Positions 4,921 through 63,862 of a stretch of DNA of 63,862 nucleotides are shown here, in pieces. A program made the position numbers and the translations under genes. The notes beneath the pieces are model-generated. The model was not told the DNA's origin and did no database searches. It was given only the letters and a program-made list of their open reading frames with translations. Every line of letters starts with the position of its first letter. Position 1 is the first letter of the stretch. This DNA is from Myxococcota bacterium (GTDB taxonomy: Bacteria; Myxococcota_A; Polyangia; HGW-17), in NCBI GenBank assembly GCA_018821305.1, contig JAHJMN010000085.1, forward strand, positions 1-63,862. The letters run 5' to 3'.

Positions 4921-5949
4921 ATGGCAGTAAATAATAAAATTACATCATTGATTACATTGTCATTTCTTTGGTACTTGTCTGCCTGCTCCACTCCAAAGCG
5001 GCCAGAGGGCAATTCTCAAAAAAAAATAGTCATTGAAAAGGTTTTCGCAGAGCCGAAAGTAAAACAAGTTGAAAAGTTAAAACAAAAGCCATCAATTCAG
5101 CTTACGCAGACGCAACCAGTTCCTGAAATGAAATCACCTCTGGTTGTATTCAGTTACAAGTTGGGTTGCCAGGAGGCAGCAGCATATATATACCCCGTGA
5201 CATGTTATGATCCGGCAGTAGGACTATGGATTACCGGCCCAAGGTGCCTGCGTTCTTTTGTCGGGACACGTTACCATCTTTTGTCTGATGGAGATGAAAA
5301 AGAAATTAAAGCATCGGCTGCCCTTGATTACAAAATTCCTGGTGTATTTACCTTCCTGCCATACAACAGTGAGCTTTTCGCATTCACAATAATTAAGGAT
5401 ATGACACATATAAAACTGGAAGCGGACAAAAGTCCAAAACTGAGTTGGAGCGAGAAGAAATTTATCAACGCTTTTACACGTCGAACAGCACCTGCATTGG
5501 CAAGAGACAGCGTCGTAAAAAAACCAGTCTTCTGGAAAGAACCGGAAATTGACAATATAAAAATTTTTGAGAGAACCATTGCTGATATTGACGAAGATGG
5601 TAAAAAGGACAGTGTTTATGCTGTGGAAATAACTTTCTCAGGAACAATTTCTCTCACTGCGACCATGCTTGTGTTTGCTCCCAGTGGTGATTTAAAAAAG
5701 CTTTCCTTTTTATTGGACAGCAAGGGAGCTCTAAGCACGCCTCGCTTTGTAGTCAATATTGGCAAAAAGCGATTTGTCCTCTTTCAGGATGATTCATTTT
5801 TATCTGGAGCCCGGGATGGGATAAGACTCATGCTTTGGGAAAATGGACGCCTTACTCCCGCTTTTCATATCTGCTGCATTTACGACAAAAAAATACAGAA
5901 AAACACTCCTGTCATATGTCCGGAAAAGAAAACAAAATCAGTGAAATAG
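4921..5949 (+). CDS. hypothetical lipoprotein (LSAC lipobox)
   Basis: Signal peptide with LWYLSAC lipobox; no recognisable catalytic motifs; ORF of 342 aa with upstream gggag RBS. Confidence 0.6.
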   Translation: MAVNNKITSLITLSFLWYLSACSTPKRPEGNSQKKIVIEKVFAEPKVKQVEKLKQKPSIQLTQTQPVPEMKSPLVVFSYKLGCQEAAAYIYPVTCYDPAVGLWITGPRCLRSFVGTRYHLLSDGDEKEIKASAALDYKIPGVFTFLPYNSELFAFTIIKDMTHIKLEADKSPKLSWSEKKFINAFTRRTAPALARDSVVKKPVFWKEPEIDNIKIFERTIADIDEDGKKDSVYAVEITFSGTISLTATMLVFAPSGDLKKLSFLLDSKGALSTPRFVVNIGKKRFVLFQDDSFLSGARDGIRLMLWENGRLTPAFHICCIYDKKIQKNTPVICPEKKTKSVK

Positions 5950-6077
5950 TTATTGTCCTGTAATACGTTCGTTTCAAGTTTACAGCAATTTTTACACATG
6001 ACATAAAAAATGGAAACCTTGAAATTATTGCAGTGTTCTGAAAAGTATGTTTTCCTAAACATACTCATTTTTGCAAG
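5950..6077 (+). repeat. S-T composite repeat, degenerate copy 2
   Basis: ttattgtcctgtaatacg directly after a TAG stop; T module 6012-6077 shares about 85% identity with copy 1, with the hairpin retained through compensatory changes (agtatgttt / aaacatact). Confidence 0.8.
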
Positions 6078-6122
6078 ATAGTAGATCCTGAGGATTTCCG
6101 GAACAGTATTGTAATTGAATTT

Positions 6123-6190
6123 TACCGCTTCCTTAAATGGTTATGACCTGATCCTGCCCCTGTTTCCTGACTGCCTGTCTACCTGAGATA
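6123..6190 (-). repeat. M-element internal-deletion fragment (right-type end plus CCTG arm)
   Basis: taccgcttccttaaatgg then ttatgacctgatcctgcccctgtttcctgactgcctg resembles the reverse complement of the M right end and CAGG arm. Confidence 0.55.
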
Positions 6191-6241
6191 TACGATATAC
6201 TATATTGCAATACTCTGGCTCAACTTACGTGGGCATCGCTG

Positions 6242-6294
6242 TAATGTCCTGTAATACAGTTTTTCAAATTTTTCGCCGATTTTTCGCTCAGGAC
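6242..6294 (+). repeat. S-like module (degenerate)
   Basis: taatgtcctgtaatacagtttttcaaatttttcgccgatttttcgctcaggact compared with 63712-63768. Confidence 0.6.
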
Positions 6295-6354
6295 TCTCAC
6301 TGTTTTCTGCGAAAACAGTTGTCGATTTTGACGATTTCATGCGGAAATACGAAC

Positions 6355-6566
6355 TAGACCGCTTGCGGAATAAAAGGATTGAAAAGTGAAAAGTGTAAGT
6401 TTTCATCAACCATTTGTAATTATGCTTTGATGTTGTAAGTTTATGACCTGATTCTGATCCTGTTTGCCTGACTACCTGAGTTTCTGTTTAAAATTTCAGG
6501 GAAACAGGAAATCAGTAGCAGGAGCAGGACAATCAGGGTCTCTTTCCTGAAGCATTTCTTTAATAA
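6355..6566 (-). mobile_element. M element, reverse orientation, lacking its left-type terminus (copy M-f)
   Basis: tagaccgcttgcggaataaaaggattgaaa (right-type end) ... cctg arm ... cagg arm ... tctttcctgaagcatttctttaataa; aligns with M-g along its length. Confidence 0.8.
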
Positions 6567-6723
6567 TAATAACCATATGGTTTTCATCCATAAATTTACC
6601 CAGAACTTTGTCCTTTATTGAAGTAATCTTTTTCTCAAGGAAATGGATGGTTAATCCGCATATGGCTACAGTTGCATAATATACTTTAGAGTGTTGCGGA
6701 AGTCAAGGGCGTTTATTATATTT

Positions 6724-6817
6724 AGTTCGTGTCCTGTAATTCGCTTCGCTAAGGATTTTATTAAAAATCCTAACTAGACCGCTTGCGGAGTAATACGATT
6801 GTGACTCGGTTTAAACA
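6724..6817 (+). repeat. composite: caggacacgaac module (reverse complement), 8-bp hairpin, then solo M left end
   Basis: agttcgtgtcctg; aggatttt-atta-aaaatcct hairpin; ctagaccgcttgcggagtaatacgattgtgactcggtttaaaca is identical to the M-a left end over about 40 nt; ends 35 bp before the 6851 start codon. Confidence 0.8.
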
Positions 6818-6850
6818 TATGTAGTTCAACGAAAAAACTGGAGGAATATT

Positions 6851-8236
6851 ATGATACTGGATGAGAACACGTTAACTTCATCTAAAATCGGACTATTTAT
6901 TGTTATCTTTTTTCTATCCGCCTGCGCCGGTAGTGGGAAAAAGACTTCAGGATCCGGAGCGCCTACAGACCTGTCGGTCACTCCTGACTCCACAACGGAG
7001 CTTTTTCTTACATGGAAAGACAATACCGATACCGAGACCGGTTTCGTTATTGAACGCAGCGTAGATGGTCTCCATTTTGCAAATATCCATGAGACATTAC
7101 CTGACGAGACATCATGGACTGACACCGGTCTTAACCACTCAACAATGTACTACTATCGGGTTCAAGCAAAATTTGGCGATGCATTTTCCGGGTATTCCAA
7201 CGTGGCCTCCACATCCACACTTTGTGATGGGAACACTTCCCTTCGCTGTGGAGATCTATGCGTTAATCCCAACTATGACAAACTCAACTGTGGAACGTGC
7301 GGTAATGACTGCGATGACGGTCAGGTCTGCATCGAGGGAAGTTGTACGGAATCTCCTTGCGATCCTCCATGTCAAAACGGCGGAACATGCAGCGGACTCA
7401 ACCAATGCGAGTGCCTGAATGGATGGTCTGGGGAAACCTGTGAGGAATCGCTTTGCGATCCACCTTGCCAAAACGGTGGAACTTGTATCGGCGTAAATCA
7501 GTGCGAGTGCCTGAGCGGATGGTCAGGAGTAACCTGTGAGGAATCGCTATGCGATCCACCTTGCCAAAACGGTGGAACCTGCAGTGGCCCTGATCAGTGT
7601 TCATGTCCAGCTGGATGGTCGGGAGACATCTGTAATGTACCAAACTGCAATCCATCCTGCCAGAATGGTGGAACCTGCATAGCTCCGAATCAGTGTACAT
7701 GTCCTAATGGGTGGACAGGACAAACTTGTGAAACAGTAACTGATGCAATTCCCATCGACAAAATAGATATGGCTGCTCGGGGTGTTGGTAGTGAGCAGGT
7801 TTTAACCTGGCCACAAACAGCTCAATTGAACAGTATGAATATCCACTGGGGCAGTTGGTACGGAGCACCAACATGGTATGTCGATATTGACGCTGTGGGT
7901 CACCTTTCCTGGACTGAATATCGACCTTATGGAGGCCCTAACGATGTGTTGATTACCGGGAACATTTGGATCCTCGTTCCCCAGTCCGGTTCAGATCGTT
8001 GGTGGGCCGCTCCTTTCGAGGGACTGGTTAAATTTACTACCATTCATTGCGCGGGGAATCTTAATTTTGAACGTACCAACATCCTCGAAAACTCGCCTCT
8101 GGCTTCCCCCTGGCAGCCACAAGCAGGTGTGACTTACGGATGGATGATATCCACTAATGTATCCACATTCTTTCCTAGCTCTAACGATGATCAGCGCAGT
8201 AACATTATCCTCGAGACATGGCCTCCGAATCCATAA
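6851..8236 (+). CDS. secreted lipoprotein with fibronectin-III domain followed by five tandem EGF-like repeats
   Basis: Lipobox FFLSAC; FN3-like segment (LTWKDNT...YYYRVQA); five repeats of CDPPCQNGGTCxGxNQCxCxxGWSGxTCEES with classic EGF cysteine spacing; ggagg RBS at 6839. Confidence 0.65.
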   Translation: MILDENTLTSSKIGLFIVIFFLSACAGSGKKTSGSGAPTDLSVTPDSTTELFLTWKDNTDTETGFVIERSVDGLHFANIHETLPDETSWTDTGLNHSTMYYYRVQAKFGDAFSGYSNVASTSTLCDGNTSLRCGDLCVNPNYDKLNCGTCGNDCDDGQVCIEGSCTESPCDPPCQNGGTCSGLNQCECLNGWSGETCEESLCDPPCQNGGTCIGVNQCECLSGWSGVTCEESLCDPPCQNGGTCSGPDQCSCPAGWSGDICNVPNCNPSCQNGGTCIAPNQCTCPNGWTGQTCETVTDAIPIDKIDMAARGVGSEQVLTWPQTAQLNSMNIHWGSWYGAPTWYVDIDAVGHLSWTEYRPYGGPNDVLITGNIWILVPQSGSDRWWAAPFEGLVKFTTIHCAGNLNFERTNILENSPLASPWQPQAGVTYGWMISTNVSTFFPSSNDDQRSNIILETWPPNP

Positions 8237-8298: not shown

Positions 8299-8576
8299 CT
8301 AAACCGCTTCTTGAGTAATACGATAGTAACTTAATTTAAAGAAATACTTCAGGAAAACGACGCTCAATAGCATTCCCCTGCGCGAAATTGCCTACCTGAT
8401 TGTCCTGATTCTGCTACTGGTTGCCTGTGTACCTGAAATTTTTACAGGTAAGTAGGTAAGCAGGAAACAGGAGCAGCAGCAGGTCGTAAACATTCAGCAT
8501 AAAGGCATAATTACAAAAGAAGACAATAATCCACTCAGTTTGAGATTTCGATCTTTTTACTCAAGAAGCGGTTTAG
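8299..8576 (+). mobile_element. M element, complete copy M-d (MITE, IS630/Tc1-like: TA-flanked, 21-bp perfect TIRs)
   Basis: TA at 8299-8300 and at 8574-8575; left aaccgcttcttgagtaa is the exact reverse complement of right ttactcaagaagcggtt; central cctg-arm / cagg-arm hairpin 8389-8487; conserved core cattcccctgcgcgaaattgcctacctg. Confidence 0.9.
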
Positions 8577-9667
8577 TAATCAAATAACTTCAGTTGTACG
8601 GGTTTTGAGTTTGCAGTGGGTTTCGGTTTGACATCTCCGAGGTTGGAAACGGATATTCCCAGAAGTCTTACTTTGACATCTCCTACAATGGCAATTTTTA
8701 AAAGGTCCCGGGCGGTCTTTATAATAAGTTCAAGATCATCAATGGGATGTGGAAACGATCGATTTCGAGTGATTTGCCGGAAATCACTGAATTTAATCTT
8801 TAAAGTAACCGTTCGGCCCTTTGTTTTATGTTTTAACATCCTTTTATGAACGATGTTCGCGATACGATCCAGTTCATAAGCCATCTCTTCAAACGTAGTT
8901 AGATCCTTCGCAAAAGTATCCTCAGCTCCCACGGATTTTGTTTCTCGATGAGGTTCTACTCTGCGCTCATCAATACCTCTTACAATTTTGTAATAAAACC
9001 GTCCAACCTTACCGAAATGCATCACAATATCTGCTTCAGAGAGTTTTTTAAGGTCAGACCCCGTGTGAAGGCCCATTTTCTTCATTTTCTCCGCAGTAAC
9101 TTTTCCCACTCCGAAAAACTTTTCCACAGGTAAGCTTTCAATAAAGCTTTCAACTTTCGAAGGACCGATAAAAGTGAGTCCGTCGGGTTTGTTCATATCT
9201 GACGCTACCTTGGCGACAAACTTGTTTACAGAAACCCCGGCGGAAGCAGTGAGATTGAGTTCTGTTTTAATTGCTGTGCGTATCTGCTCTGCAATTTCAA
9301 GAGCGGATCCGATGCCCTGTTTGTCCTGCGTAACATCAAGATAAGCTTCATCCAGAGAAAGTGGTTCAATTAAATCAGTGTAACGGGAAAAAATTTCCCT
9401 AATCTGTTCGGAAACGCGCTTGTAAACTTCGAATCGGGGATAAACAAAAATCAAATGAGGACAAAGCTTTTGTGCTCGCTTTGATGGCATGGCAGAATGG
9501 ATCCCATACTTTCGTGCTTCATAACTGCAGGTTGCTACAACACCGCCGCGCCCATCGGGGGATCCACCAACAGCAATGGGTTTTCCACGATAATCCGCAT
9601 TGTCCCGCTGCTCAACGGAAGCATAAAACGCATCCATATCAATATGAATTATTTTCCTGTCAAACAA
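8573..9667 (-). CDS. dinB: DNA polymerase IV (Y-family, error-prone)
   Basis: N-terminus KIIHIDMDAFYASVEQRDN and SYEARKYGI are canonical DinB/UmuC motifs; 364 aa; stop codon overlaps the terminus of repeat element M-d. Confidence 0.9.
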   Translation of the reverse strand: MFDRKIIHIDMDAFYASVEQRDNADYRGKPIAVGGSPDGRGGVVATCSYEARKYGIHSAMPSKRAQKLCPHLIFVYPRFEVYKRVSEQIREIFSRYTDLIEPLSLDEAYLDVTQDKQGIGSALEIAEQIRTAIKTELNLTASAGVSVNKFVAKVASDMNKPDGLTFIGPSKVESFIESLPVEKFFGVGKVTAEKMKKMGLHTGSDLKKLSEADIVMHFGKVGRFYYKIVRGIDERRVEPHRETKSVGAEDTFAKDLTTFEEMAYELDRIANIVHKRMLKHKTKGRTVTLKIKFSDFRQITRNRSFPHPIDDLELIIKTARDLLKIAIVGDVKVRLLGISVSNLGDVKPKPTANSKPVQLKLFDY

Positions 9668-9714
9668 GCAAAACCGCTTTCGTCCATATGATATTTCCCG
9701 GGAAATACTGCAAA

Positions 9715-10668
9715 TTAAAGGGGAAGAGGAACGTTTTCGATTATTGAATTGAGGATTTCCTCTGTGTCCGTGTATTCGAGACCCATGAGTTCCTGACGAG
9801 CGACCATGCGGTGTGCAAGAGCACAGGGAGCAAGTTCGTGAAGATCCTCAGGTACTACGTATTTGCGACCGTCGACCAGGGCAAGGGCTTTAGCTGTGCG
9901 AATCCATGAAATGAGGGCACGGGGACTGATGCCCAGAGCGAGCATTTCGTTTTTCCTGCTGTAAAGGCCGATTTTAAGTATGTATTCCACAAGCGAATCC
10001 GCGAGTTTTACGGTATCCACCATCTCCATTATGCCGGAAATCTCATCGGGCTCCAGCATTGTGCGAGCCTTTACGGTATTGCCGCGACCAGCACGTTTGA
10101 GGAGAAACATCTCTGACTCAGGTTGCGGGTAGCCGAGACGGAGCCGGATATCGAAACGATCAAGTTGGCTTTCGGGAAGAGGGTAAGTGCCAGCAATTTC
10201 AACGGGATTTTGTGTTGCAATTACGAAAAACGGGCGAAGCAGAGGATATGTTTCACCCTCAACCGTAACCTGATTTTCTTCCATAGCTTCTAAAAACGCA
10301 CTCTGAGTTCTCGGAGCAGCACGGTTAATTTCGTCAACAACAATTATATGGCTGAAGATGGGACCTTTACGGAAAGAAAGTTCACCATTCATTCCCCGGG
10401 GAATACTGTAGCCTACAACATCCGAAGGCAGAAGATCCGGTGTACACTGAATACGCTGAACACTGACACCAAGAACTTCACCCAGAGTGCGAGCAAGAGT
10501 AGTTTTACCAACTCCCGGTACATCTTCTAAAAGCAAATGCCCACCGGCAAAAAAGGCAGCAGAAGCAAACCGCACAATACGGCGGGGCCCAAGATAGTGG
10601 CGGCCGACTTCTTCAACAAGGTTTCGCAGGAGATTCTGGGAAGTTTCGTGATCCATTATAGTGACCAA
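9715..10668 (-). CDS. MoxR-family AAA+ ATPase (orphan, no adjacent VWA/DUF58 partner)
   Basis: Walker A GVGKTTLAR, Walker B IIVVDEINRA, 317 aa typical MoxR size; no partner gene on either side (MITE copies instead). Confidence 0.85.
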   Translation of the reverse strand: MVTIMDHETSQNLLRNLVEEVGRHYLGPRRIVRFASAAFFAGGHLLLEDVPGVGKTTLARTLGEVLGVSVQRIQCTPDLLPSDVVGYSIPRGMNGELSFRKGPIFSHIIVVDEINRAAPRTQSAFLEAMEENQVTVEGETYPLLRPFFVIATQNPVEIAGTYPLPESQLDRFDIRLRLGYPQPESEMFLLKRAGRGNTVKARTMLEPDEISGIMEMVDTVKLADSLVEYILKIGLYSRKNEMLALGISPRALISWIRTAKALALVDGRKYVVPEDLHELAPCALAHRMVARQELMGLEYTDTEEILNSIIENVPLPL

Positions 10669-10697
10669 GTCCAGTGCAACTTTTTGTGTTTTGTAAT

Positions 10698-10901
10698 GAG
10701 TTCGTGTCCTATTGCATTCCGCTGCGTGAAATTGCCTGCCTGAATTCCCTTTTACTGCTACTGCTTACCTGATTTTTTTAACAGACAATCAGGAATTCAG
10801 AAAATCAGGTTCAGGATCTGTGTAACCATTCAGAATTAAAACGAACGTAATTTTTAATTCAATTTCCCGGTTTCGATCCTTTTATTCCGCAAGCGGTCTA
10901 G
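10698..10901 (+). mobile_element. M element copy M-b, left end replaced by caggacacgaac module (reverse complement)
   Basis: gagttcgtgtcct then conserved core attgcattccgctgcgtgaaattgcctgcctg, hairpin arms, right end tttcgatccttttattccgcaagcggtc followed by TA (10899-10900). Confidence 0.85.
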
Positions 10902-12145
10902 AAAACATAACCCTTTGGTATAACGACGATATCTTCATCTGTGACGAAGAATCGCTGACGATCCCGGTATACGTCGTATCCGATTTCCTCGTTGGCTGGA
11001 ATCTGTATGTTTTTGTCAACTATACATCGTCTCAACCTTGCATTGCGTCCTACCTCGACGTTTTCGAAAAGAATTGAATCCTCAATTTGAGAATAGGAGT
11101 TAATGCGTACACAGGTACCGAGGATGGAGCGATCAATGCGACCACCGGAAATAATACACCCTTCAGAAACCAGTGAGTTCGTGGCGACACCCACGCGGGG
11201 ACCGTCGGCAAATACGAATTTGGCCGGAGGAAGTGGTTGATTATATGTATGAATAGGCCAATGCCGATTATAGAGATTGAACGTAGGGCTTACGCTTATC
11301 AGTTCCATATTGGCATCGAAGTAACTCTGAAGATTACCGACATCTCGCCAGTAGCCCTTCTCTCGTTCGGTTTCGCCGGGAACTATATTGCTTGAAAAAT
11401 CATAAACAAAAACCCTGTAGGACTCAACCATCTTGGGGATAACGTCCTTGCCGAAATCGTGACTTGAAGTTGGGTTTTCCGCATCCCGGGAAAGCTCGCT
11501 GACCAGCGGTAGGGGATCAAAAACATAGTTACCCATGGAAGCCAGTGCCCAACCGGGACGACCGGGAATTTCTTTGGGTTCTTTTGGTTTTTCCTGGAAT
11601 CCGAGAACCCGCCAGTTGGTGTCGACTTCAATGACGCCAAAAGAGCGTGCTTCTTCCACGGGGACTGGAATCGCAGCAATTGTGAGATCCGCACCAGCCA
11701 TGAGATGAAAATCGATCATCTGACGGATGTCCATAGTGTAAATGTGGTCGCCACCGAAAATACACATGATATCAGGACGTTCGTCAACGATTATGTTCAT
11801 GCTCTGGTAAATGGCATCAGCACTTCCTTTGAACCAGCTTTTATCCACTCGCTGCTGTGCAGGAACTGCTTCAATGTATTGACCAATGGTGAACGGAAAA
11901 TGCCAGCCTCGACTCAGGTGCTTGTTGAGACTGTCGGATTTGTATTGAGTCAGTACTTTAATCTTGTAAAGACCGCTATTTACGAAGTTTGACAGAACAA
12001 CGTCAATGAGACGGTACCGGCCACCGATGGGAACGGCGGGTTTTGCCCGGTCTGCGGTTAGAGGAAACAGGCGGCTTCCCACTCCGCCTGCCAGAACTAC
12101 GCTGAGTATTTTCGCAGTGGTTCTCTTTATGAGTAAATCGCGCAT
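10898..12145 (-). CDS. glgC: glucose-1-phosphate adenylyltransferase
   Basis: VLAGGVGSRLFPLT nucleotide-binding loop, PAVPIGGRYRLIDVVLSN motif, left-handed beta-helix C-terminus; stop codon overlaps terminus of repeat element M-b. Confidence 0.9.
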   Translation of the reverse strand: MRDLLIKRTTAKILSVVLAGGVGSRLFPLTADRAKPAVPIGGRYRLIDVVLSNFVNSGLYKIKVLTQYKSDSLNKHLSRGWHFPFTIGQYIEAVPAQQRVDKSWFKGSADAIYQSMNIIVDERPDIMCIFGGDHIYTMDIRQMIDFHLMAGADLTIAAIPVPVEEARSFGVIEVDTNWRVLGFQEKPKEPKEIPGRPGWALASMGNYVFDPLPLVSELSRDAENPTSSHDFGKDVIPKMVESYRVFVYDFSSNIVPGETEREKGYWRDVGNLQSYFDANMELISVSPTFNLYNRHWPIHTYNQPLPPAKFVFADGPRVGVATNSLVSEGCIISGGRIDRSILGTCVRINSYSQIEDSILFENVEVGRNARLRRCIVDKNIQIPANEEIGYDVYRDRQRFFVTDEDIVVIPKGYVF

Positions 12146-12274: not shown

Positions 12275-13918
12275 CTACTCTACGAGGGAGAAAGACAGGA
12301 TCATTTTCCAGTGGTCTTCGTGGGTCTCGACATTATCGAGTTCCGTCATTACTTCCGGGCCCGGATCCCCGTTTAAAGTTGTGAGAAGCGATGAAGACAT
12401 TTTAATAATGGGAAAAGTGGAAAACATATCGCTTACTACACCGGGGACAGCAGTATTCAGCAATTTAACGACTTTATCCGTATCAACAAGTTCGTTCATG
12501 CGATCAAAACCCGTATCGTAAAAGACGATTGTGCGACTGGTATCGCGCATCAGTCGGAGAGAATTGCCTTCCTGAACAAAATAAACAGGGACTTTTCCCG
12601 CTGTGTGAGCTGTGGTGTCTGCGGCGCCTTCAACGGCCATGGTAATCTGAATTCCGCCCATCACAAGCCACGGTCCATCTGATTCCCACTCAAGAATTGG
12701 CGGTAAAAGCAGGTTAATTTCCGAAGAAGAAATACGATCGTAGTAGCCCCCGAGTTTTTCCATTCCGAGGTTATAAAGCTGCTCTTTGGTGTAGACTATA
12801 TTATTAGTATTACCGGCATCCCAGATGGCAAAAGCTATCTGATTTACAAGAGAACTACCGAAAGTAATGGTCATACCCTGCTCAAAATTGCCATCAGGGT
12901 GCGTGCGTTTGAGCACTCCATGGTCGGGTTTTGCATAAATCGGTGTTTCAGCTTTAATTTCCGTTCTATACGTGAGACTAACATTTCCAGCACCACTCAC
13001 CAGACTTTCCACTTGAGTCACCTGGGTAATGGGATACTCAAAATCCAGTTGCACCTGAGGAACCAGAGTCGTCATGAGTGTGTTAAATACAACCCGGGAA
13101 GAATTACGAGTGGTTTCCATAATTGCCTTACGAACTTCCTCGTCCAGGGCGTCAATTACAAAACCGAAAGCTTCCTCAGGAATACCGCCATCATCAGTTA
13201 CGTGCGGGTCAGAAGCAATGGCGGACATATTGATGAGATCACTGTCTGTTGTGCTCAGAATTACTTCTCCGGATACTTCCATCCACTCGTATAAAGCCTG
13301 TCCTGATGAATTGATGCCAGCGGTTTTAGCGTTGTAGACGATGTTCACGTTAGACAGAAGCGAATGAAAATAAAGTGTATCGCCATCATAATACATTGAA
13401 ACATCAATTCCTTCGGCGATGACGGATGTGGAAGTAACTTCAATTGTAACGGGAATAAATGCGATAGTTGTTTCAACGGTAATGGGGTTTGGCATGTACT
13501 CAACGAGTTCCTGCCCTTCCATCATATCGCTGCATAAAGAAGCAAATGAAACTCCCTGAGCCTTGTCTATTATGTCAGGGCCGAGTCTGGTTTTTACTGT
13601 TCCGCTATGAAAACCTGCAGGTTCAAGGAATTCACCCTGATGATAGGACCGTACAGTCAATAACCGGGAGCCTAGTTGGCCCGCTACAATAAAACCCAGT
13701 CCGTCAACGGGATCCAGTGATACTGACGCAGATTTACCTGAATAAATCTGACCATTTATATGAATAGGACCTGATTTGCCAGAAACAAAAACCTCAGCTT
13801 GCTGCCTCGGTGCGAGCATGGAGCCCGGGGGAGGATTATCAATTACGACATTATTAACTTCTTCACAGGAAACGGCTGTCAGAGCAAGAATAAGTGTGAT
13901 AATCGAAATAATTTTCAT
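12275..13918 (-). CDS. hypothetical lipoprotein (547 aa)
   Basis: Signal peptide with LTAVSC lipobox; long ORF with even codon usage; no recognisable motif. Confidence 0.6.
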   Translation of the reverse strand: MKIISIITLILALTAVSCEEVNNVVIDNPPPGSMLAPRQQAEVFVSGKSGPIHINGQIYSGKSASVSLDPVDGLGFIVAGQLGSRLLTVRSYHQGEFLEPAGFHSGTVKTRLGPDIIDKAQGVSFASLCSDMMEGQELVEYMPNPITVETTIAFIPVTIEVTSTSVIAEGIDVSMYYDGDTLYFHSLLSNVNIVYNAKTAGINSSGQALYEWMEVSGEVILSTTDSDLINMSAIASDPHVTDDGGIPEEAFGFVIDALDEEVRKAIMETTRNSSRVVFNTLMTTLVPQVQLDFEYPITQVTQVESLVSGAGNVSLTYRTEIKAETPIYAKPDHGVLKRTHPDGNFEQGMTITFGSSLVNQIAFAIWDAGNTNNIVYTKEQLYNLGMEKLGGYYDRISSSEINLLLPPILEWESDGPWLVMGGIQITMAVEGAADTTAHTAGKVPVYFVQEGNSLRLMRDTSRTIVFYDTGFDRMNELVDTDKVVKLLNTAVPGVVSDMFSTFPIIKMSSSLLTTLNGDPGPEVMTELDNVETHEDHWKMILSFSLVE

Positions 13919-14060
13919 AGGAAATCCTGAGCCAGTATGAGAAGACTGACAGGATGTAATCTAGAGGGCCAGGATTGCATTGTCAATAAAAACTTCAAAA
14001 TTTAGATAATATATTCATACACTTATGACGCAGCGTGTCAAAATAAAATCAGGACATTGG

Positions 14061-15524
14061 CTAAAACCGTTGGAGTGTTTTTCCTGAGATAATCCGGAAA
14101 GAATGAGGGGCTAAAAGCATGTCGTGCAAGTCACCCCCAGCGGGATAGATCAAACGAGAGGGTTGAAATTCGTCCGGATATTTGAAAGCGGTACCAAAAC
14201 GGGATTTATTGAAAATGCAAAGAAAACAGGTCTCTGAATCCTGTCGATAAAAACTGAAAATGTCACCCTTTGCTATGGCGCGACGATATTTTCCGTCCCG
14301 GAGGACCGAATGCTCCTTTCTGAGGGAAGCAAGATCTGAGAGTCCCTTATAAATAGAATTCTCAAACGCATTATTAAAAATTTCTGAAGGAATTGTCTTT
14401 CTACAATGAGGGTCTTTTCCACCTGTGAGGCCAATTTCATCCCCGTAGTACACACAGGGAAGTCCCGGAAGCAGATATATAAGGGCGTGGGCAAACAAGT
14501 GCTTGCGAGGATTTTGACGCAATATTGTAAAAGTGCGCGGAGTATCGTGGCTACCGAGCAGATTCAGTTGTCGTAAAAGCGATTCAGAATCGAATAATTT
14601 AAAATAAGAGTCAATCCAGTCTGCTACTGATTCGGCGTCAAGGGGCTGAATATCCCTGTAATTTGAATTCTGCACAACAGATTTTGCCGGAGATTCATCC
14701 ACGGTAAAACCGATGATTTTCTTTGCAAGTTCATAATTCATTATTGAATCAAAGAGGTTTTCAGTAACCCAGCTGGATCCGTTTTCCCAGATTTCCCCCG
14801 TGAGATAGCACGACGGATTAACTTCGCGAACCTGAGCGCAGAACAAAGGCCAGAAATCAGGGTTTTCAATTTCTTCAGGAACATCAAATCTCCAACCGTC
14901 AATCCCCCTCTCCGTCCAGAATCGAGCTACTTTGAGAGCAAATTCTATAACTTCCGGATTGTAAGTATTAAATTTTGGCAAGGCAGGAAGTCCCCACCAG
15001 CAACGGTAACCGAACTTCTGTATATCACTGTTTCCGCGCATACGACCGTAGGGCACAATACCGCCACCATCCTTTAGAGCGGACTGATCAAAATGAAACC
15101 AGTCGATATAGGGTGATGCACTGCCGTTTTCCGCAGTGTGGGCAAACTGCAGGAATGAGCGGGAGGCATGATTAAAAACCCCATCAATAATAATGCGCAT
15201 ATCACGTTCATGGGCACTCTTGATAAGAGCATCAAAAGCGGGCATTCCCCCAAGGATGGGATCCACGTTGAAGTAATCCGTTGTGTGATAACGATGATTT
15301 GCCGTAGAAGTAAAAACCGGTGTCAGATAGATTGCATTGATGCCTAGATCTCTTAGATAATCCAGATGCTCAACTACCCCGTATAGGTCACCACCTTTGA
15401 ACCCGTAAACTGATGGTGGAGAATCCCATTCTTCAAAAACACCAACCTTTTCTACACGCTCACTCCTGGCAAACCGGTCAGGAAAGATTTCATAAAAAAC
15501 AGCTCTTTTCCAGTCATACGTCAT
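14061..15524 (-). CDS. GH13 alpha-amylase family glycosidase (cyclomaltodextrinase/neopullulanase-like)
   Basis: GH13 conserved regions: DGVFNH, GWRFDV (nucleophile Asp), GEIW (acid/base Glu), LLGSHDTPR. Confidence 0.85.
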   Translation of the reverse strand: MTYDWKRAVFYEIFPDRFARSERVEKVGVFEEWDSPPSVYGFKGGDLYGVVEHLDYLRDLGINAIYLTPVFTSTANHRYHTTDYFNVDPILGGMPAFDALIKSAHERDMRIIIDGVFNHASRSFLQFAHTAENGSASPYIDWFHFDQSALKDGGGIVPYGRMRGNSDIQKFGYRCWWGLPALPKFNTYNPEVIEFALKVARFWTERGIDGWRFDVPEEIENPDFWPLFCAQVREVNPSCYLTGEIWENGSSWVTENLFDSIMNYELAKKIIGFTVDESPAKSVVQNSNYRDIQPLDAESVADWIDSYFKLFDSESLLRQLNLLGSHDTPRTFTILRQNPRKHLFAHALIYLLPGLPCVYYGDEIGLTGGKDPHCRKTIPSEIFNNAFENSIYKGLSDLASLRKEHSVLRDGKYRRAIAKGDIFSFYRQDSETCFLCIFNKSRFGTAFKYPDEFQPSRLIYPAGGDLHDMLLAPHSFRIISGKTLQRF

Positions 15525-16331: not shown

Positions 16332-16589
16332 TTGAATAACGTCCTCTCAACCTGTTGCATTTCACAAGGCGAAATTGCTTGCCTGTAATCCATTACGGAA
16401 CACAAAAGATATTTTATGTCCTGAATTCCGAAACGAAACAACATAAATTGACTATTTTATATGCCCATAGTTGCGAATTTAATTTATTAAAAGTGTGTTT
16501 TGAAGAAAAAATTACAAAAAAATCAACACTCCACTTTGCACAGAACAGACAAAGGTGTATACTGTCATACCATTTCAGGAGGAGTACCC

Positions 16590-18077
16590 ATGAAAAAACT
16601 TACAATCTCTATAATTTTAGGTCTTGCGATGATTGCAGCTCCGGGTTGCGACGATGATTCTTCAAATCCGGCTCAGGAGATCTGTGATAACGGTAAGGAC
16701 GATGATGGCGATGGATTTATTGACTGTCTTGACCAGAACTGCTTTGGTGATCCCGCCTGCAACAGCACTCAGGAAATCTGCGACAACGATCAGGATGATG
16801 ATGGTGACGGATTTGTGGATTGCGATGATGCCGATTGCGTAAACGAATGCGAATACACAGAAATCTGCAACAATGAAATCGACGACGATGACGATGGTTA
16901 TGTAGACTGCGATGATCAGGATTGCTCCGGCAGCCAATTCTGCAATGCAACAGAGGAAATCTGCAACAATAACCTTGATGATGATCTCGATGGTGCCATT
17001 GACTGCGATGACTCCGATTGTTCCGAACATCCATCCTGCATCACAAATGATGAAATCTGTGACAATGGCGTTGATGACGATGGGGACGGGTTTGTGGATT
17101 GCAATGACGCCGATTGCGAAGACGAATGCGAATTAACAGAAGTCTGCAACAATGAGCAGGACGATGATGAAGACGGTTTTGTAGATTGTGAAGATCAGGA
17201 TTGCTGGAATCACCAGTACTGCAACCTTCCTGTGGAAAACTGCACAAACGGCATTGACGACGATATGGACGGCGATGTTGACTGTGAAGACGGCGACTGT
17301 CGTGAACACCCTGACTGCTGGATCACTCAGGAAGATTGTGAAAACGGCATTGACGATGACAACGACGGCTTCGTTGACTGCAACGATTCCGACTGTGCGG
17401 ATCAGTGTGTCTTCCTTGAAAATTGTAATAATCAGATTGATGATGATGGCGATGGATATGTTGACTGTGAAGATCAGGATTGCTGGAACAATCAGGTTTG
17501 TCAGGCTCAGACGGAAATCTGCTATAACGGCCTTGATGATGACGGTGATGGCGACATCGATTGCGATGACTGGGACTGCTATAATTCACCCTATTGCCCG
17601 GGCTCTGAAGAAATCTGCAATAACATGTGGGATGATGATGGCGATGGCGACATCGATTGCGCCGATGCAGACTGCGCAATGGATCCATGGTGTCAGACTC
17701 CTAGAGAACAGGATTGCTCAAACTGGCAGGACGATGATGGCGACGGATATCGTGATTGCCGTGATTCCGACTGCATAGGAGATGCAGCATGCGGTGAATG
17801 TAACGCAGTGGATGGCTCCGGATGCGGAAATGGGACTTATTGCTACTTTGATCGTCAGGATAATTATCAGGGCAACTGCACAACGGAGCATGGTACAGGA
17901 AGTGTTGGAGATCCCTGCCAGACGGAAACGGAATGTTCCGTAGGTCTTTTCTGCAATCAACAAACAGATGTTTGTGACGAACTTTGCCTCCTTGGCACTG
18001 TATGTTCATCCTCAGGCGGCACTGCAACCATGTGTACTGAAGCATGGAACGGAAGCCCCTACGGCTACTGTCCGTAA
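16590..18077 (+). CDS. secreted lipoprotein made of ~11 Cys/Asp-rich putative metal/Ca-binding repeats (ICDNGxDDDGDGFVDCxDxDC)
   Basis: RBS aggagga then ATG at 16590; lipobox LAMIAAPGC; tandem ~37-aa repeats with higher-order ~330-nt nucleotide periodicity; the ORF-track start at 16500 is upstream of the RBS and judged too early. Confidence 0.7.
   Translation: MKKLTISIILGLAMIAAPGCDDDSSNPAQEICDNGKDDDGDGFIDCLDQNCFGDPACNSTQEICDNDQDDDGDGFVDCDDADCVNECEYTEICNNEIDDDDDGYVDCDDQDCSGSQFCNATEEICNNNLDDDLDGAIDCDDSDCSEHPSCITNDEICDNGVDDDGDGFVDCNDADCEDECELTEVCNNEQDDDEDGFVDCEDQDCWNHQYCNLPVENCTNGIDDDMDGDVDCEDGDCREHPDCWITQEDCENGIDDDNDGFVDCNDSDCADQCVFLENCNNQIDDDGDGYVDCEDQDCWNNQVCQAQTEICYNGLDDDGDGDIDCDDWDCYNSPYCPGSEEICNNMWDDDGDGDIDCADADCAMDPWCQTPREQDCSNWQDDDGDGYRDCRDSDCIGDAACGECNAVDGSGCGNGTYCYFDRQDNYQGNCTTEHGTGSVGDPCQTETECSVGLFCNQQTDVCDELCLLGTVCSSSGGTATMCTEAWNGSPYGYCP
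16650..17700 (+). repeat. intragenic tandem DNA repeats (about 111 nt units in about 330-nt higher-order blocks) encoding the Cys/Asp-rich repeats
   Basis: Recurring gaaatctgcgacaa ... gatgatgatggcgatgg ... gattgcgatgat strings at about 111-nt spacing across 16650-17700. Confidence 0.7.
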
Positions 18078-21165: not shown

Positions 21166-21447
21166 CGTTACCGTTTTCGGAGTAATACTATAGTGAACAA
21201 TTTTCAGTAAATGCTACAGGAATGAGCCCCTCTAAAGCATTCCGCTGCGCGTTATTGCCTACCTGATTACCTTGTTCATGCTAATGATTTCCTGTTTGCC
21301 TGATTTTTTTTAACAGGAACTCAGGCAGTCAGGCAAACAGGCTCAGGATCAGGTCATAAACATTCAATATCAATGTAAAATTAAAAAGACTGAAAGAAAA
21401 TACTCACTGTTCTATTCTCGATCCTTTTACTCGAAAGCAGTCTAATC
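21166..21447 (+). mobile_element. M element, complete divergent copy M-c
   Basis: TA-ccgttttcggagtaatactatagtgaac ... conserved core aaagcattccgctgcgcgttattgcctacctg ... hairpin ... ctcgatccttttactcgaaagcagtc-TA. Confidence 0.85.
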
Positions 21448-31718: not shown

Positions 31719-31836
31719 GGTTACTGTCCTGAGCAATAATTGGGCGAAAAATTTGATTTTCGGTATTTCAAAGGGGTCTTTGCCTGAAGTTTTTCTCTAA
31801 AATTCAACACAATCGTATTACTTCACAAGCGGTCAA
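31719..31836 (+). repeat. second S-prime module plus a left-type M terminus in reverse orientation
   Basis: ggttactgtcctgagc ... ttcaaaggggtctttgcctgaagtttttctc then caatcgtattacttcacaagcggtc. Confidence 0.7.
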
Positions 31837-32001: not shown

Positions 32002-32814
32002 GTGAAAACTTTTTTTCTGATTTTTCTATCTTTGTTTCTAGTAAACTGCAAATCCAGTAAGGACGACAAACCACTGCTGGTGGAAAATACAAAAGACACA
32101 CCTGAGACACAGAAGAGCGATCTGAAAACTCCCGATAAAATCAAGAAACCTGCTCCAGAACCGGTTCTAACGGATGAGTTCAAACTTCCGGAAGGTAGCG
32201 CCGGGTATATCTGGATCTCGGACAAAAATCTGACCACAACAGGAAAGATTTTAAAAACTTCAGGTTCCGTGAGCAGTCTTTATTTCATTAAACTCAATAA
32301 TGAAGGCAAATTTGAAATCCTTTCTGCAGCTCCGGATCCAAAGGGTCCCATCGGGATAAACAAAAAATATTTTAATTACCCCAAGGGGCTTTCAGCGGGT
32401 TTGAGTTCCGTCAAAATAAACCATGAAGTTTCGTCAATGGCTGTATATCTTAGTCAATTCAAGAAATCCACCCTTGAAAAAGTTTTCAAAAAACTTCCTG
32501 GGTTCAAACTTAAGACAATACAAGTTGTTGAAAAGCAGGGTTTATTTGCCATTAGTTTAATTTCGACCGTTAATTATTCCAATGATCTGTTTAATGCCCT
32601 GACCTATTGGAAACAACTGGCCTTAAACAGCCGTATCCATATTGAAAAATTAGCACCGGGGGCATCTAAAACTGGTATTGCTTTGAATAATATCAAAATT
32701 ACAGGAAAAAAGAGAACCATTACCGTGGAGATTCCCTTCGCATATGATGACATTCTCTGGTCAGTAAATGAACTGAACCGTCTTTACATTTTTGTTAAAA
32801 GAGGTGGACAATGA
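32002..32814 (+). CDS. hypothetical lipoprotein (LVNC lipobox), upstream of and overlapping rex
   Basis: Signal peptide and lipobox; lysine-rich; ATGA overlap with rex start. Confidence 0.55.
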   Translation: MKTFFLIFLSLFLVNCKSSKDDKPLLVENTKDTPETQKSDLKTPDKIKKPAPEPVLTDEFKLPEGSAGYIWISDKNLTTTGKILKTSGSVSSLYFIKLNNEGKFEILSAAPDPKGPIGINKKYFNYPKGLSAGLSSVKINHEVSSMAVYLSQFKKSTLEKVFKKLPGFKLKTIQVVEKQGLFAISLISTVNYSNDLFNALTYWKQLALNSRIHIEKLAPGASKTGIALNNIKITGKKRTITVEIPFAYDDILWSVNELNRLYIFVKRGGQ

Positions 32815-33482
32815 ACGGAGATAGCACCATTTCATCGAAAGGAAATCCCATTCCTCATGCTACGATGGAGCGTTTGCCCAGATATCTGATGCAACTCTAT
32901 CGCTTCCGGGTTATTGGTGATGCCAATGTATCATCTCAGGCTCTGGGTGAAAGCCTGGGACTCAAAGACACTCAAATCCGAAAGGATCTCTCGTACTTTG
33001 GTGTCTTTGGGAAAGCTCGTTATGGATACAATATTGACTTTCTCATCGATGCTCTGGAGAAAATTCTCGGACTGACTCGAGTTTATAATCTAGCCATCGT
33101 TGGAGCTGGAAACATCGGCCGAGCCCTGGCAACGTACCGAGGTTTCGAGAGTAGAGAATTTAGAGTAAAACTGATTTTCGACAATAATAAAGGTCTCATC
33201 GGTCAGGATATTGGAGGCATTGTTGTTCAGGACTTTCGACTGCTTGAAGAAAAGATAAAAGAAATTCCCGTCGATATAGCGATAATTGCGGTTCCTGAAA
33301 AAGCCGCTTATGAAGTAGCTGAAACCCTTGTAAAAGCAGGCATTAAAGCAATTTATAACTTTACACCTGCGGAACTTCACCACCACGAAGGTGTTTTCAT
33401 TGAGCATGCAAGTATATCCTTCGGGATTTACAAACTTGCTCACCACCTTTCCGGCCACTGGCCCCGGAAATCCCAGCGCTAG
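32811..33482 (+). CDS. rex: redox-sensing transcriptional repressor Rex
   Basis: N-terminal winged helix IPHATMERLPRYLMQL and Rossmann IVGAGNIGRALA NADH-binding motif. Confidence 0.85.
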   Translation: MNGDSTISSKGNPIPHATMERLPRYLMQLYRFRVIGDANVSSQALGESLGLKDTQIRKDLSYFGVFGKARYGYNIDFLIDALEKILGLTRVYNLAIVGAGNIGRALATYRGFESREFRVKLIFDNNKGLIGQDIGGIVVQDFRLLEEKIKEIPVDIAIIAVPEKAAYEVAETLVKAGIKAIYNFTPAELHHHEGVFIEHASISFGIYKLAHHLSGHWPRKSQR

Positions 33483-47134: not shown

Positions 47135-47938
47135 ATGCCCAGTAATGCACTGAAAGCAAATATTTATTATGGTGACATCCTTCTTGGTTCCGAATTGGAA
47201 GTAAAGGATTTTTCTCTGGATAAATTCATTGTTTTTTACAATGAACCCATGCCCGTGGCCACGGATCTTATAGTAGAAATAAACTCCGATGAATCACCGG
47301 TAAAGGGCAGTGCAGTTGTAATTAAGGCAGTTGAGGGCGAAAAAGATAATACTCCCTTTATGGAAATAAGGTGGGTTGAAATTGCTGATGAAAACATCAA
47401 GGTTTTAAATTCCGTAGCTGAAAAAGCCAGTGCTCCTGAGCCGCAAGCCGTGGAAACTGAGATTATTCCGGAAATTACGGAACCCGAAACCCAACCGTCC
47501 GAAGATATATCGGAATCCAATGAAGAAACTCCGGATCCTGTGGAATCAGTCCCTGATGTCGAGGACATTGATACTACAATGAAAATTGACTTAAATCAGG
47601 AATCTGAAAGTGAGTCAAATGAGGAATCAGTTGACAATGAAGCTTCCACTGAATCAGAAAACTCAGTAACGGGAGAAGAATCTTCTGATGAACCGGAACC
47701 AACTCCCGAACCTGATTCACCAGTATCAGACTCCCCAGATGAAATTGATGCAGAAAAAAAGGAAGATGACTCCCAAGCTCCAGAAATAAACAGCGAAGGT
47801 AGTGAAGAAGGCGTTTTGCCTGATTCTGATGGCAATGGGGAAGAGAAGCCCGACGATTCCAAAGTCACCGGTGATGGAGCTTCTGAAGACGACAAACCCG
47901 TCAAGAAAAAAGTTCGTCGCCGCACAAAAAAATCATAA
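47135..47938 (+). CDS. acidic protein with N-terminal PilZ-like beta-barrel and long Glu/Asp/Ser-rich tail
   Basis: Start at ATG 47135 after aaaggaga RBS (ORF-track start 47000 would overlap SPFH gene and lies upstream of the RBS); C-terminal 170 aa low-complexity acidic; KKKVRRRTKKS tail. Confidence 0.55.
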   Translation: MPSNALKANIYYGDILLGSELEVKDFSLDKFIVFYNEPMPVATDLIVEINSDESPVKGSAVVIKAVEGEKDNTPFMEIRWVEIADENIKVLNSVAEKASAPEPQAVETEIIPEITEPETQPSEDISESNEETPDPVESVPDVEDIDTTMKIDLNQESESESNEESVDNEASTESENSVTGEESSDEPEPTPEPDSPVSDSPDEIDAEKKEDDSQAPEINSEGSEEGVLPDSDGNGEEKPDDSKVTGDGASEDDKPVKKKVRRRTKKS

Positions 47939-61379: not shown

Positions 61380-61660
61380 TCTAGACCGCTTGCGGAGTAA
61401 TACGATTGTGACTCGTTTTAAAGAAATGCTTCAGGAAAGAGCCCCCTCTATGGCATTCCGCTGCGCGAAATTGCCTACCTGTTTTCCTGTTGCTGCTACT
61501 GCTTACCTGGTTACCTGAAATTTTAAACAGGTATACAGGAAGTCAGGAAAACAGGTTCAGGATCAGCGGTTAAACATTCAATATCAATAATAATTAAAAA
61601 GAATGTAATTTTTAATTCATTTTCCCAATTTCGATCCTTTTAATCCGCAAGCGGTCTAAT
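61380..61660 (+). mobile_element. M element, complete reference copy M-a (about 277 bp between TA flanks)
   Basis: TA-gaccgcttgcggagtaatacgattgtgactcg ... core gcattccgctgcgcgaaattgcctacctg ... cctg arm/loop aaattttaaa/cagg arm ... cgatccttttaatccgcaagcggtc-TA; followed at 61689-61702 by ttcaggacacgaac. Confidence 0.9.
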
Positions 61661-61733
61661 TTCCATTTTCGCATTCGCCATTTTAATTTTCAGGACACGA
61701 ACGAATTAAGTGGTGGACTGGATATCGGAAATT

Positions 61734-63149
61734 ATGCACACTGTGGAAAGAATATGGAGGAGACATTCTTTGAAAAATATTACTTATTATCTACTGTTTT
61801 TATTTGTCTTATCATGTATATCCTGTTCAGATGATAAATCTACTAAATCATCTGTCATTTATGAACCAGATGAAGAAGACCTTGATGAAAACGGTTTACC
61901 CAAACCTGGATTCGAAGTTCGAATTCCCGTTATAACTGATATTGATGAATACGTTATTGAACTCGAGAGATGGGAAATTCCTTCCGATGGCACTGATTTC
62001 GCAACGACGACTACCAACTTGCAGGCCGCTATTGATTGGGCACACAATGAAGGCTATTCCCGCGTAGTTTTGCCCCAGGGCCAATACCTGGTAAGTAAAG
62101 ATGTAAACGACAATTATCAAGGTGGAATTGAAATTTATGGAAATACAGAGTTTGTATTCAGTGAAGGTGCCGAAATAATAATGGATACAAACGACAAATG
62201 GAACTATTGCGTGCTGCGCCTGAATGGTGACAACATTATCGTCCGTAATGGCATTATTACCGGAGATCGCGATACCCATGTGTTTACACCGAGATCTGAC
62301 GGTGGTACTGCTCATGATGAAGGGCATGGAATTTGTGTGTGGGAAAACAACAACGTGCTCATTGACAATATGGAAGTCCGGGATTTGACCGGGGACGGTT
62401 CCCTCGTGCTTGATTCAACGGACATTACTATTGTTTCCTGTGATATTTACAATAATCGAAGGCAGGGAATTTCTATTGTGGGTGGCGTGAGGATTGCGGT
62501 AACTGATAATACTATTCACCACATTAATGGTACAGCACCACAGTTCGGTATAGATATCGAGGGTCCCGGTCGCCTGGATAAAGATATTCTGATACAAAAT
62601 AACAGTTTTCATCACAATACAGGTGGGGATATTGTTAATGCCACTGGCGAAAACGTTTATATTCTCGATAATGTAATGGAGCAGGGTGAAGGCAGCACTT
62701 ATGTCGATGGTCCTTTGGTAACCTGGCATAAAACCCACAGCATAATTGCAAGAAATACAATCTCAATGATTTCAGGTTCGGTAAACGGTCGTCTGGGTTT
62801 TATACAGTACTCCGGCGGTGGTGACAAAGGGCACAATCGGGCAACCTACGTTCACGATAATATCTGTAATAATTGTGGAATGTACATGTATAAAAGCTCC
62901 CAGGCGGATGTACGTCGGAATCAATTCCTCGGGTACTTTATGGCGTTCAGCAAATTCGTGAACGTCATACTGATTGATAATCTTGTGACATTTTCCGATG
63001 AATACCCTGACCTCAGGTATTGCTGGTCATACCGTTTTGATGATGTTACAGGTTTCGCAAGTGGAAACCGTTTAGGAGACGCCATCGAAGAAATTCCCCT
63101 TTCTGAAACCGAGCCCTACACACTCCAGTGTGTCCTTTACGGCTGGTGA
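61734..63149 (+). CDS. right-handed parallel beta-helix (pectate-lyase-fold) secreted protein
   Basis: Repeated NxxxxGI/V beta-helix coils (GDRDTHVF, NRRQGISIVGG, NTGGDIV); lipobox-like LSCISC; alternative TTG start at 61770 has the better RBS (ggagg at 61756) and gives a clean lipoprotein signal. Confidence 0.6.
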   Translation: MHTVERIWRRHSLKNITYYLLFLFVLSCISCSDDKSTKSSVIYEPDEEDLDENGLPKPGFEVRIPVITDIDEYVIELERWEIPSDGTDFATTTTNLQAAIDWAHNEGYSRVVLPQGQYLVSKDVNDNYQGGIEIYGNTEFVFSEGAEIIMDTNDKWNYCVLRLNGDNIIVRNGIITGDRDTHVFTPRSDGGTAHDEGHGICVWENNNVLIDNMEVRDLTGDGSLVLDSTDITIVSCDIYNNRRQGISIVGGVRIAVTDNTIHHINGTAPQFGIDIEGPGRLDKDILIQNNSFHHNTGGDIVNATGENVYILDNVMEQGEGSTYVDGPLVTWHKTHSIIARNTISMISGSVNGRLGFIQYSGGGDKGHNRATYVHDNICNNCGMYMYKSSQADVRRNQFLGYFMAFSKFVNVILIDNLVTFSDEYPDLRYCWSYRFDDVTGFASGNRLGDAIEEIPLSETEPYTLQCVLYGW

Positions 63150-63172: not shown

Positions 63173-63285
63173 TATACCGCTTCCTGAGTAATACGATTGT
63201 GACTCGTTTTAAAGAAATGCTTCAGGAAAGAGCCCCCTGTTTTCCTGTTGCTGCTACTGCTTACCTGGTTATCTGAAATTTTGAG
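63173..63285 (+). mobile_element. M element 5-prime portion (copy M-j), with a 32-bp internal deletion removing the conserved core, truncated within the hairpin
   Basis: Near-identical to M-a positions 61383-61447 and 61480-61521 (one mismatch, tt vs ta, at 63270-63271); breaks off after ctgaaatttt. Confidence 0.85.
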
Positions 63286-63709: not shown

Positions 63710-63862
63710 AATTACTGTCCTGTAATACAATAAATCAAATTTTTCGCCGATTTTTTGCTCAGGACAGTAACAACGAAGACCTTGAAATTATTGTAGTGTT
63801 CTGAATAGCATGTTTTCGTAAACATGCTCAATTTTGATAAAAATTGAATTTCAGGACACGAA
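63710..63862 (+). repeat. S-T composite repeat, copy 3 (complete S hairpin plus T module, running to the window edge)
   Basis: TA-ctgtcctg (63712-63722) ... caggacag-TA (63760-63770); T module 63775-63862 nearly identical to 52-140; hairpin 63807-63828. Confidence 0.85.

Follow-up and report, generated by a model that had tools for sequence, protein, structure and literature searches.

Two M elements around dinB and moxR in an uncultured Myxococcota genome: a probable in-situ mosaic rather than a mobile cassette

Genes and repeat elements at the locus

The contig JAHJMN010000085.1 of a Myxococcota bacterium (GCA_018821305.1), analysed over its whole 63,862 nt and hereafter called the window, carries at positions 8299-10901 the genes dinB (error-prone DNA polymerase IV) and moxR (AAA+ ATPase), together with two copies, M-d and M-b, of a short repeated element termed M. 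A sequence-only reading had described this segment as a two-gene block bracketed by miniature inverted-repeat transposable elements (MITEs), and had proposed that it could be an acquired or mobilisable cassette. The arrangement itself was borne out, the open reading frame (ORF) listing, profile searches and nhmmer agreeing in the placement of dinB and a MoxR ATPase on the minus strand between two M copies of the same orientation. With glgC, the pair forms a series of three successive minus-strand genes. The two elements flank dinB and moxR as described but do not lie strictly outside genes, since their right termini overlap the stop codons of dinB and glgC.

M-d (8299-8576, plus strand) is a complete element of 278 nt (nhmmer E = 6.7e-83, model positions 2-280). 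It is followed by dinB (8573-9667, minus strand, 364 aa with a TTG start), by a spacer of 47 nt (9668-9714) holding what is tentatively a decayed solo M right terminus, clearer in the close relative L083, and by moxR (9715-10656, minus strand, 313 aa from the ATG at 10656, with an alternative TTG at 10668). Alignment to L083 tentatively suggested that the next stretch (10657-10707, plus strand) may be a degenerate 5' remnant of M-b together with the terminus of a repeat of another family. M-b had been placed at 10698-10901; its membership in the family was upheld, but it is a left-truncated copy covering 10708-10901 of the plus strand (model positions 66-280, E = 2.6e-39), lacking the left inverted repeat and retaining an intact right one. 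The glgC gene (glucose-1-phosphate adenylyltransferase, 415 aa) occupies 10898-12145 on the minus strand, and on the opposite side an FN3/EGF gene (6851-8236, plus strand) is convergent with dinB.

Gene identities were read directly from profile matches. The dinB product matched Pfam IMS (PF00817, 175 bits), IMS_C (PF11799, 97 bits) and HHH, the NCBIfam DNA polymerase IV (Pol IV) model PRK02406 / NF002677 (481 bits, for a cutoff of 256) and PDB Pol IV chains (up to 304 bits). The gene is intact, with the catalytic motifs DMDAFYASVEQ and SLDEAYLD and the C-terminal clamp-binding motif QLKLF. MoxR matched AAA_3 (PF07726, 193 bits) and AAA_lid_2 (PF17863, 75 bits), and glgC was likewise assigned by profile matches.

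M-d displayed terminal inverted repeats of 35 nt (86% complementary) and a central hairpin with CCTG/CAGG periodicity, and was predicted to fold into a rod (-47.3 kcal/mol, z = -6.7 vs shuffles). Its ends read TA/AACCGCTTCTTGAGTAATACGAT ... TTTTTACTCAAGAAGCGGTT/TA (slashes marking the element boundaries), within flanks reading C-TA ... TA-G. A profile made from four full-length copies and searched with nhmmer recovered M-b, although this copy had been left out of the seed, and identified M at 14 loci in 63.9 kb, which together make up 3.4% of the window. The four full-length copies start at 8299, 21166, 31451 and 61381 and measure 247-281 nt, both inverted repeats being present in those at 21166, 31451 and 61381, while the other loci were truncated or internally deleted. 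No ORF of at least 60 aa was listed inside M-d or M-b. M termini, of the form GACCGCTTGCGGAGTAATACG, mostly started with TA; 15 of them had the common core TA-GACCGCTTGCGGAGTAA, with a C at position -1 in 10 of the 15 (binomial P = 2e-4 vs base composition). M-d and the copy at 61381 have TA on either side. The low-GC relative L088, which provides an empty site from another species, shows the C-T-A ahead of M-b to be host sequence.

With its inverted repeats, its flanking TA bordered by C, its lack of an ORF and its many decayed copies, the M family resembles IS630/Tc1-mariner-type MITEs; IS630 targets CTAG and duplicates the TA. No transposase domain was detected in 51 of the 53 window ORFs (the scan left out two ORFs of about 110 aa at 47236-47925). 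A search of Rfam with M returned sub-threshold chance matches only, and nothing relevant turned up in the literature on MITEs of Myxococcota. Promoter and terminator predictions were counted at shuffle level, neither M-b nor M-d containing any on the minus strand, and a role of M-b as a promoter or terminator source is without support. In 1.38 Mb of other fetched loci, nhmmer found no M barring the same genome and weak matches in L083, and the family seems to be restricted to a single uncultured lineage of Myxococcota.

A second short repeat family, with termini like GTTACTGTCCTG ... CAGGACAGTAAC, was found at 15-139, 5975-6099, 6242-6294, 31720-31770 and 63713-63862, and also at 10698-10708, frequently beside or nested with M copies. 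The 900-nt intergenic region just upstream of the FN3/EGF gene (5949-6851) holds a local pile-up of nested elements, with M fragments at 6120-6185, 6354-6576 and 6774-6821 and copies of the second family.

Descent of the glgC-moxR pair and of dinB

In at least six distinct relatives free of M, glgC was directly followed by moxR without dinB, a synteny observed directly that speaks against a MITE-bracketed mobilisable cassette. These relatives are the Haliangium/Kofleriaceae metagenome-assembled genomes L001, L002 and L003, then L051, GCA_016937155.1 (L088/L089) and L095, and their glgC and moxR are respectively 78-88% and 56-72% identical to those of the window. The MoxR-based scan of genome contigs gave mostly distant MoxR proteins, L001-L003 and L051 being the informative loci, and closer relatives may be missing from this set. 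In the high-GC relatives L001, L003 and L051, the TGA of glgC overlaps the TTG of moxR (GTGTTTTGA), and L002 has the same junction sequence; in L088 the junction GTTTTCTAAATATTAATATG comprises an 8-nt spacer. Loci L090/91 and L094 encode a related moxR without glgC. The moxR and glgC of the window found Myxococcota and 'Deltaproteobacteria' relatives, and the adjacency of the two genes spans loci of these groups of 39-66% GC. Since M-free relatives keep glgC next to moxR, M-b would be an insertion inside a putatively ancestral pair, not the edge of an imported block.

A dinB gene downstream of moxR was found in none of these relatives within the roughly 20 kb inspected around moxR, where the downstream genes were unrelated and mostly convergent (kinase, DAGK, transglycosylase). 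The synteny comparison proposed in the sequence-only reading thus gave a divided answer: the absence of dinB beside moxR in relatives favours an acquisition of dinB, while moxR next to glgC without M disfavours one of moxR. The FN3/EGF gene, expected to be a conserved neighbour, occupied this position in no relative compared.

As previously noticed, moxR lacks an adjacent VWA or DUF58 partner gene, and none was present among the scanned window ORFs either. Such genes were also absent beside moxR in L001, L003, L051, L088, L090, L094 and L095, whereas the control MoxR loci L007 and L031 displayed a DUF58 gene immediately downstream. The lack of these partners is a trait of the whole glgC-linked MoxR clade, common to every member inspected, and not an effect of the bracketing elements. 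The conserved coupling to glgC suggests a functional link of this clade to glycogen synthesis and hints at a VWA-independent MoxR function; nothing relevant turned up in the literature on a MoxR-glgC link. In this genome the two genes are physically uncoupled by M-b.

Upstream of glgC (12275-15524) lie a lineage-specific gene for a 547-aa protein without Pfam match and an alpha-amylase-family gene. A scan of metagenome contigs with the 547-aa protein gave a single locus, L087 (58% identity, 67% GC), which has no glgC, moxR or dinB close by and so adds nothing to the synteny comparison.

The dinB gene showed other affinities than its neighbours. Apart from itself and L083, all named homologues among its best 120 matches were Bacteroidota (Chitinophaga, Mucilaginibacter, Solitalea, Chryseosolibacter), at 70-76% identity, and the nearest unnamed homologues adjoin SusC/SusD pairs or genes with sorting domains of the type IX secretion system. 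In a neighbour-joining tree, the DinB of the window and of L083 nested inside Bacteroidota. Identities between the window protein and Bacteroidota (0.69-0.74) overlapped those between Bacteroidota lineages (classes; 0.69-0.77), and E. coli Pol IV, at 296 bits, scored well below the Bacteroidota matches (565-602 bits). The idea of an acquired cassette can be retained for dinB alone, which looks horizontally acquired and of Bacteroidota descent, and not for the two-gene unit, moxR being apparently ancestral beside glgC. We infer a transfer directed from Bacteroidota to Myxococcota, for which this error-prone polymerase gene is a clear candidate.

Vertical inheritance of dinB, with loss or relocation in the glgC-moxR relatives and a likeness to Bacteroidota due to transfer out of Myxococcota or to slow evolution, would agree with the native-like composition and codon usage of the gene, and in relatives dinB could lie elsewhere than in the 20 kb inspected. 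This scenario is nevertheless unlikely, given the exclusively Bacteroidota named homologues, the SusC/SusD or type IX secretion contexts of the nearest unnamed ones, the position of the window gene inside and not outside Bacteroidota diversity, and the Myxococcota/'Deltaproteobacteria' relatives found instead by moxR and glgC at the same locus.

Insertion junctions and assembly of the locus

The junction sequences, read directly, placed M insertions at stop codons. On the glgC side of M-b, the window reads GTTTTCTA/GACCGC (also recorded as GTTTTCTA/GACCGCTTGCGG), and the empty-site junction of L088 aligns at the exact insertion point as GTTTTCTAAATATT. The TAG stop of glgC (10898-10900) consists of host TA and the first G of M-b, and the C-terminus of the protein (IVVIPKGYVF, followed by the stop) is identical in the window and its relatives, unaltered by M-b. 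The TA of the glgC stop thus appears to have been the insertion site of M-b, with the first G of the element restoring TAG. The TAA stop of dinB (8573-8575) is similarly composed of host TA and the terminal base of M-d. A third case is a Rex-like gene (32811-33482), whose TAG (33480-33482) is made of host TA and the first base of an M element and was restored by the insertion, so that three of the seven intact M right ends overlap a stop. With a putatively duplicated target TA and an element that starts with G or A, insertions into stop codons would restore TAG or TAA and leave the gene intact, which would account for their being tolerated.

At the truncated side of M-b, a degenerate remnant may extend to 10657, abutting the ATG of moxR (ATAGTGAC...; tentative), and the terminus GAGTTCGTGTCC of the second repeat family (10698-10708) abuts the truncated edge. 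Alignment with L083 tentatively shows a deficit of about 44 nt in the window, comprising native spacer as well as the left inverted repeat of M. Directly upstream of the dinB start, a 14-nt trace on the plus strand (around 9669-9682) is tentatively a relic M right terminus, CAAAACCGCTTTCG; its counterpart in L083 is a solo M right end of about 22 nt, TTTTTACTCGAAAGCGGTTTTG, just upstream of dinB. The possibility that this relic and M-d are halves of one M copy split by dinB was rejected, since M-d carries a terminus of its own at each end.

L083, a 2.4-kb Logan contig, was the only close relative among the matches listed (86% nucleotide identity, 87.5% for DinB). It displays moxR then dinB as in the window. 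At 21 nt upstream of its moxR ATG stands an M-type left terminus, placed and oriented like M-b, and another M-type terminus begins at the dinB stop (TAA/ACCG). Since M-like termini stand at the same junctions in L083, the M insertions around dinB and moxR appear to be old and stable. This shared arrangement, with no variation seen, also gave no backing to the suggestion of a segment varying in copy number or orientation. Two Logan contigs of the same genome, of 2.5 kb (L082) and 3.2 kb (L081), end inside or at the edge of M copies, and these ends are read as assembly breaks at repeats, not as excision products.

Deletion or inversion by recombination between M-d and M-b had also been envisaged. 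The copies have 63% identity and share no exact run longer than 10 nt, far short of the roughly 20-30 nt of identity that homologous recombination needs, which makes such an event improbable; moreover, their direct orientation could yield a deletion only, never an inversion. Elsewhere in the window, the M copies at 61381-61659 and 63173-63284, which bracket a beta-helix gene (61710-63149), show 96-98% identity along a stretch of about 110 nt, including an exact run of 53 nt, and no other pair comes near this similarity. They seem to be the latest product of M activity or duplication in the window, and would be a better recombination candidate than the copies around dinB and moxR.

The relic and M-d raise the question of whether dinB alone was captured at or between M copies, through a small composite with inverted arms or illegitimate recombination at hairpins. 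Two M right ends face dinB, the relic upstream and M-d downstream, and abut its start and stop codons; the Bacteroidota-like segment is almost exactly ORF-sized, and both M-flank features are common to L083. The completeness of M-d, with TA flanks of its own, points rather to an independent insertion, and the relic measures only some 22 nt in L083 and 14 nt in the window. The Bacteroidota dinB loci L084-L086 proved free of M (L092-L093 lay outside the scan), and insertion into the nearest tolerated TA sites by the ORF explains the geometry equally well. We accordingly regard capture by M as improbable.

The density of M in the window predicts brackets of this kind. M sequence occurred in 10 of the 52 intergenic gaps of a simple map of 53 ORFs; random placement would give about 1.5 two-gene blocks bracketed by M, for 2 observed, and 1.9 bracketed single genes, for 3 observed. 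With MITEs in about one fifth of the intergenic gaps, copies around a gene pair are expected by chance and should not be taken as the mark of a cassette.

A composite transposon, in which M-d and M-b would be the arms of a 2.6-kb unit and a transposase acting in trans would move dinB and moxR together, is structurally conceivable, as both outer repeats are present. The outer termini (8299-8325 and 10875-10901) are intact and correctly inverted, with 72% complementarity over 32 nt. C-TA borders the unit at one end and TA-G at the other, and the missing inner left repeat of M-b should, if it matters at all, bias usage towards the outer ends. A flank of 2 bp carries no information, however, and nothing indicates past movement. 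With moxR ancestrally joined to glgC and M-b exactly at the glgC stop, the unit would have been assembled in place from two genes of different phylogenetic origin. Records of this dinB come from just three contigs, which would fit three assemblies of a single genome, and no second copy is known; the scanned window ORFs include no transposase, and the arrangement is kept in L083. Movement of the segment as a composite element is thus highly improbable.

We consider it likely that 8299-10901, rather than being a mobile unit, is a mosaic assembled in situ from an ancestral glgC-moxR pair, a dinB of Bacteroidota type and at least three independent old MITE insertions. An ancestor would have carried tightly coupled glgC and moxR followed by unrelated genes. 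The lineage of this genome and of its 86%-identical relative would then have gained a dinB of Bacteroidota descent 47-103 nt downstream of moxR, with which it is probably co-transcribed. A lineage-specific, non-autonomous M element of about 280 nt would have spread into intergenic TA sites genome-wide, with three independent insertions at the gene boundaries of this locus: M-b into the TA of the glgC stop, parting glgC and moxR by about 240 nt, M-d into the TA of the dinB stop, and a third copy just upstream of dinB, now reduced to a relic terminus. Later decay would have removed the left repeat of M-b and brought the copies to 63% identity, so that today they would be inert spacers and not substrates for recombination or transposition. 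We infer this order of events and an IS630-like mechanism from the synteny, junctions and termini described above.

Several points weigh against this reconstruction. The TA duplication and the event order were derived from a single comparison between species (L088) together with the flank statistics, and an autonomous transposase with matching termini was not found in the window, the IS630-like assignment being by analogy only. A composition and codon test for a foreign dinB gave no signal (GC content at third codon positions of 0.373 vs a window mean of 0.384), although native-like composition is uninformative here because the candidate donors are similar in GC. The DinB tree was built without support values and included no other Myxococcota DinB. 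Element interiors in L083 differ from M-b and M-d, which makes orthology of the insertions plausible, not proven, and strain-level variation is judged from a lineage represented by two genomes only.

Two further readings, which we advance jointly and only tentatively, are that the MoxR clade, translationally coupled to glgC in its relatives, may serve as a dedicated chaperone or regulator of ADP-glucose pyrophosphorylase or glycogen metabolism, and that M may prefer C/TA/R stop sites, where the stop is regenerated. If the latter is true, M would be a MITE that systematically inserts hairpins between the genes of operons while sparing the genes themselves.

Apart from the elements and genes considered so far, an ORF at 16500-18077 (plus strand) contains, at 16677-17792, 12 tandem units of 87-99 nt encoding the Cys/Asp-rich motif CxNxxDDDGDGxxDCxDxDC, in a protein without Pfam match.

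Relation to known systems

What is new here, besides the candidate transfer of dinB between phyla and the conserved glgC-moxR coupling, is an undescribed, lineage-specific, IS630-like MITE family in an uncultured low-GC Myxococcota lineage, with insertions that overlap and restore stop codons; the findings leave the current understanding of such elements or genes unchanged. M is like the IS630/Tc1-mariner-derived MITEs, such as the Correia elements of Neisseria and RUP of Streptococcus pneumoniae, in its short non-coding form (about 280 nt), its terminal inverted repeats of 25-35 nt with a long hairpin fold, its TA flanks with an enriched outer C fitting a C/TA/G-type target, and its many dispersed intergenic copies, some of them truncated or internally deleted. 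It is longer than Correia and RUP, with a distinctive CCTG/CAGG central arm, and differs from described MITEs in having no demonstrated sequence similarity to them, no Rfam match and no cognate transposase in the window.

As in the composite transposons Tn5 and Tn10, two family members flank genes here and outer inverted termini are present. Unlike in those transposons, the interior would not have been delivered as a unit, moxR being apparently ancestral at the site, and one arm is truncated, the arms sharing 63% identity; neither a transposase among the scanned window ORFs nor evidence of a second location came to light.

The DinB of the window shares with Pol IV of the Bacteroidota clade the full IMS, HHH and IMS_C architecture and the catalytic and QLxLF motifs, and is 70-76% identical to the proteins of Chitinophaga, Mucilaginibacter and Solitalea. 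It differs by its Myxococcota host, by its site downstream of moxR and by a two-residue C-terminal extension (DY), its stop being shared with the MITE terminus.

The MoxR of the window, lastly, shares AAA_3 and AAA_lid_2 with the MoxR AAA+ ATPases that have DUF58/VWA partners and shows 41-50% identity with MoxR proteins from other phyla, but its clade stands without such a neighbour and is instead coupled to glgC in at least six relatives.

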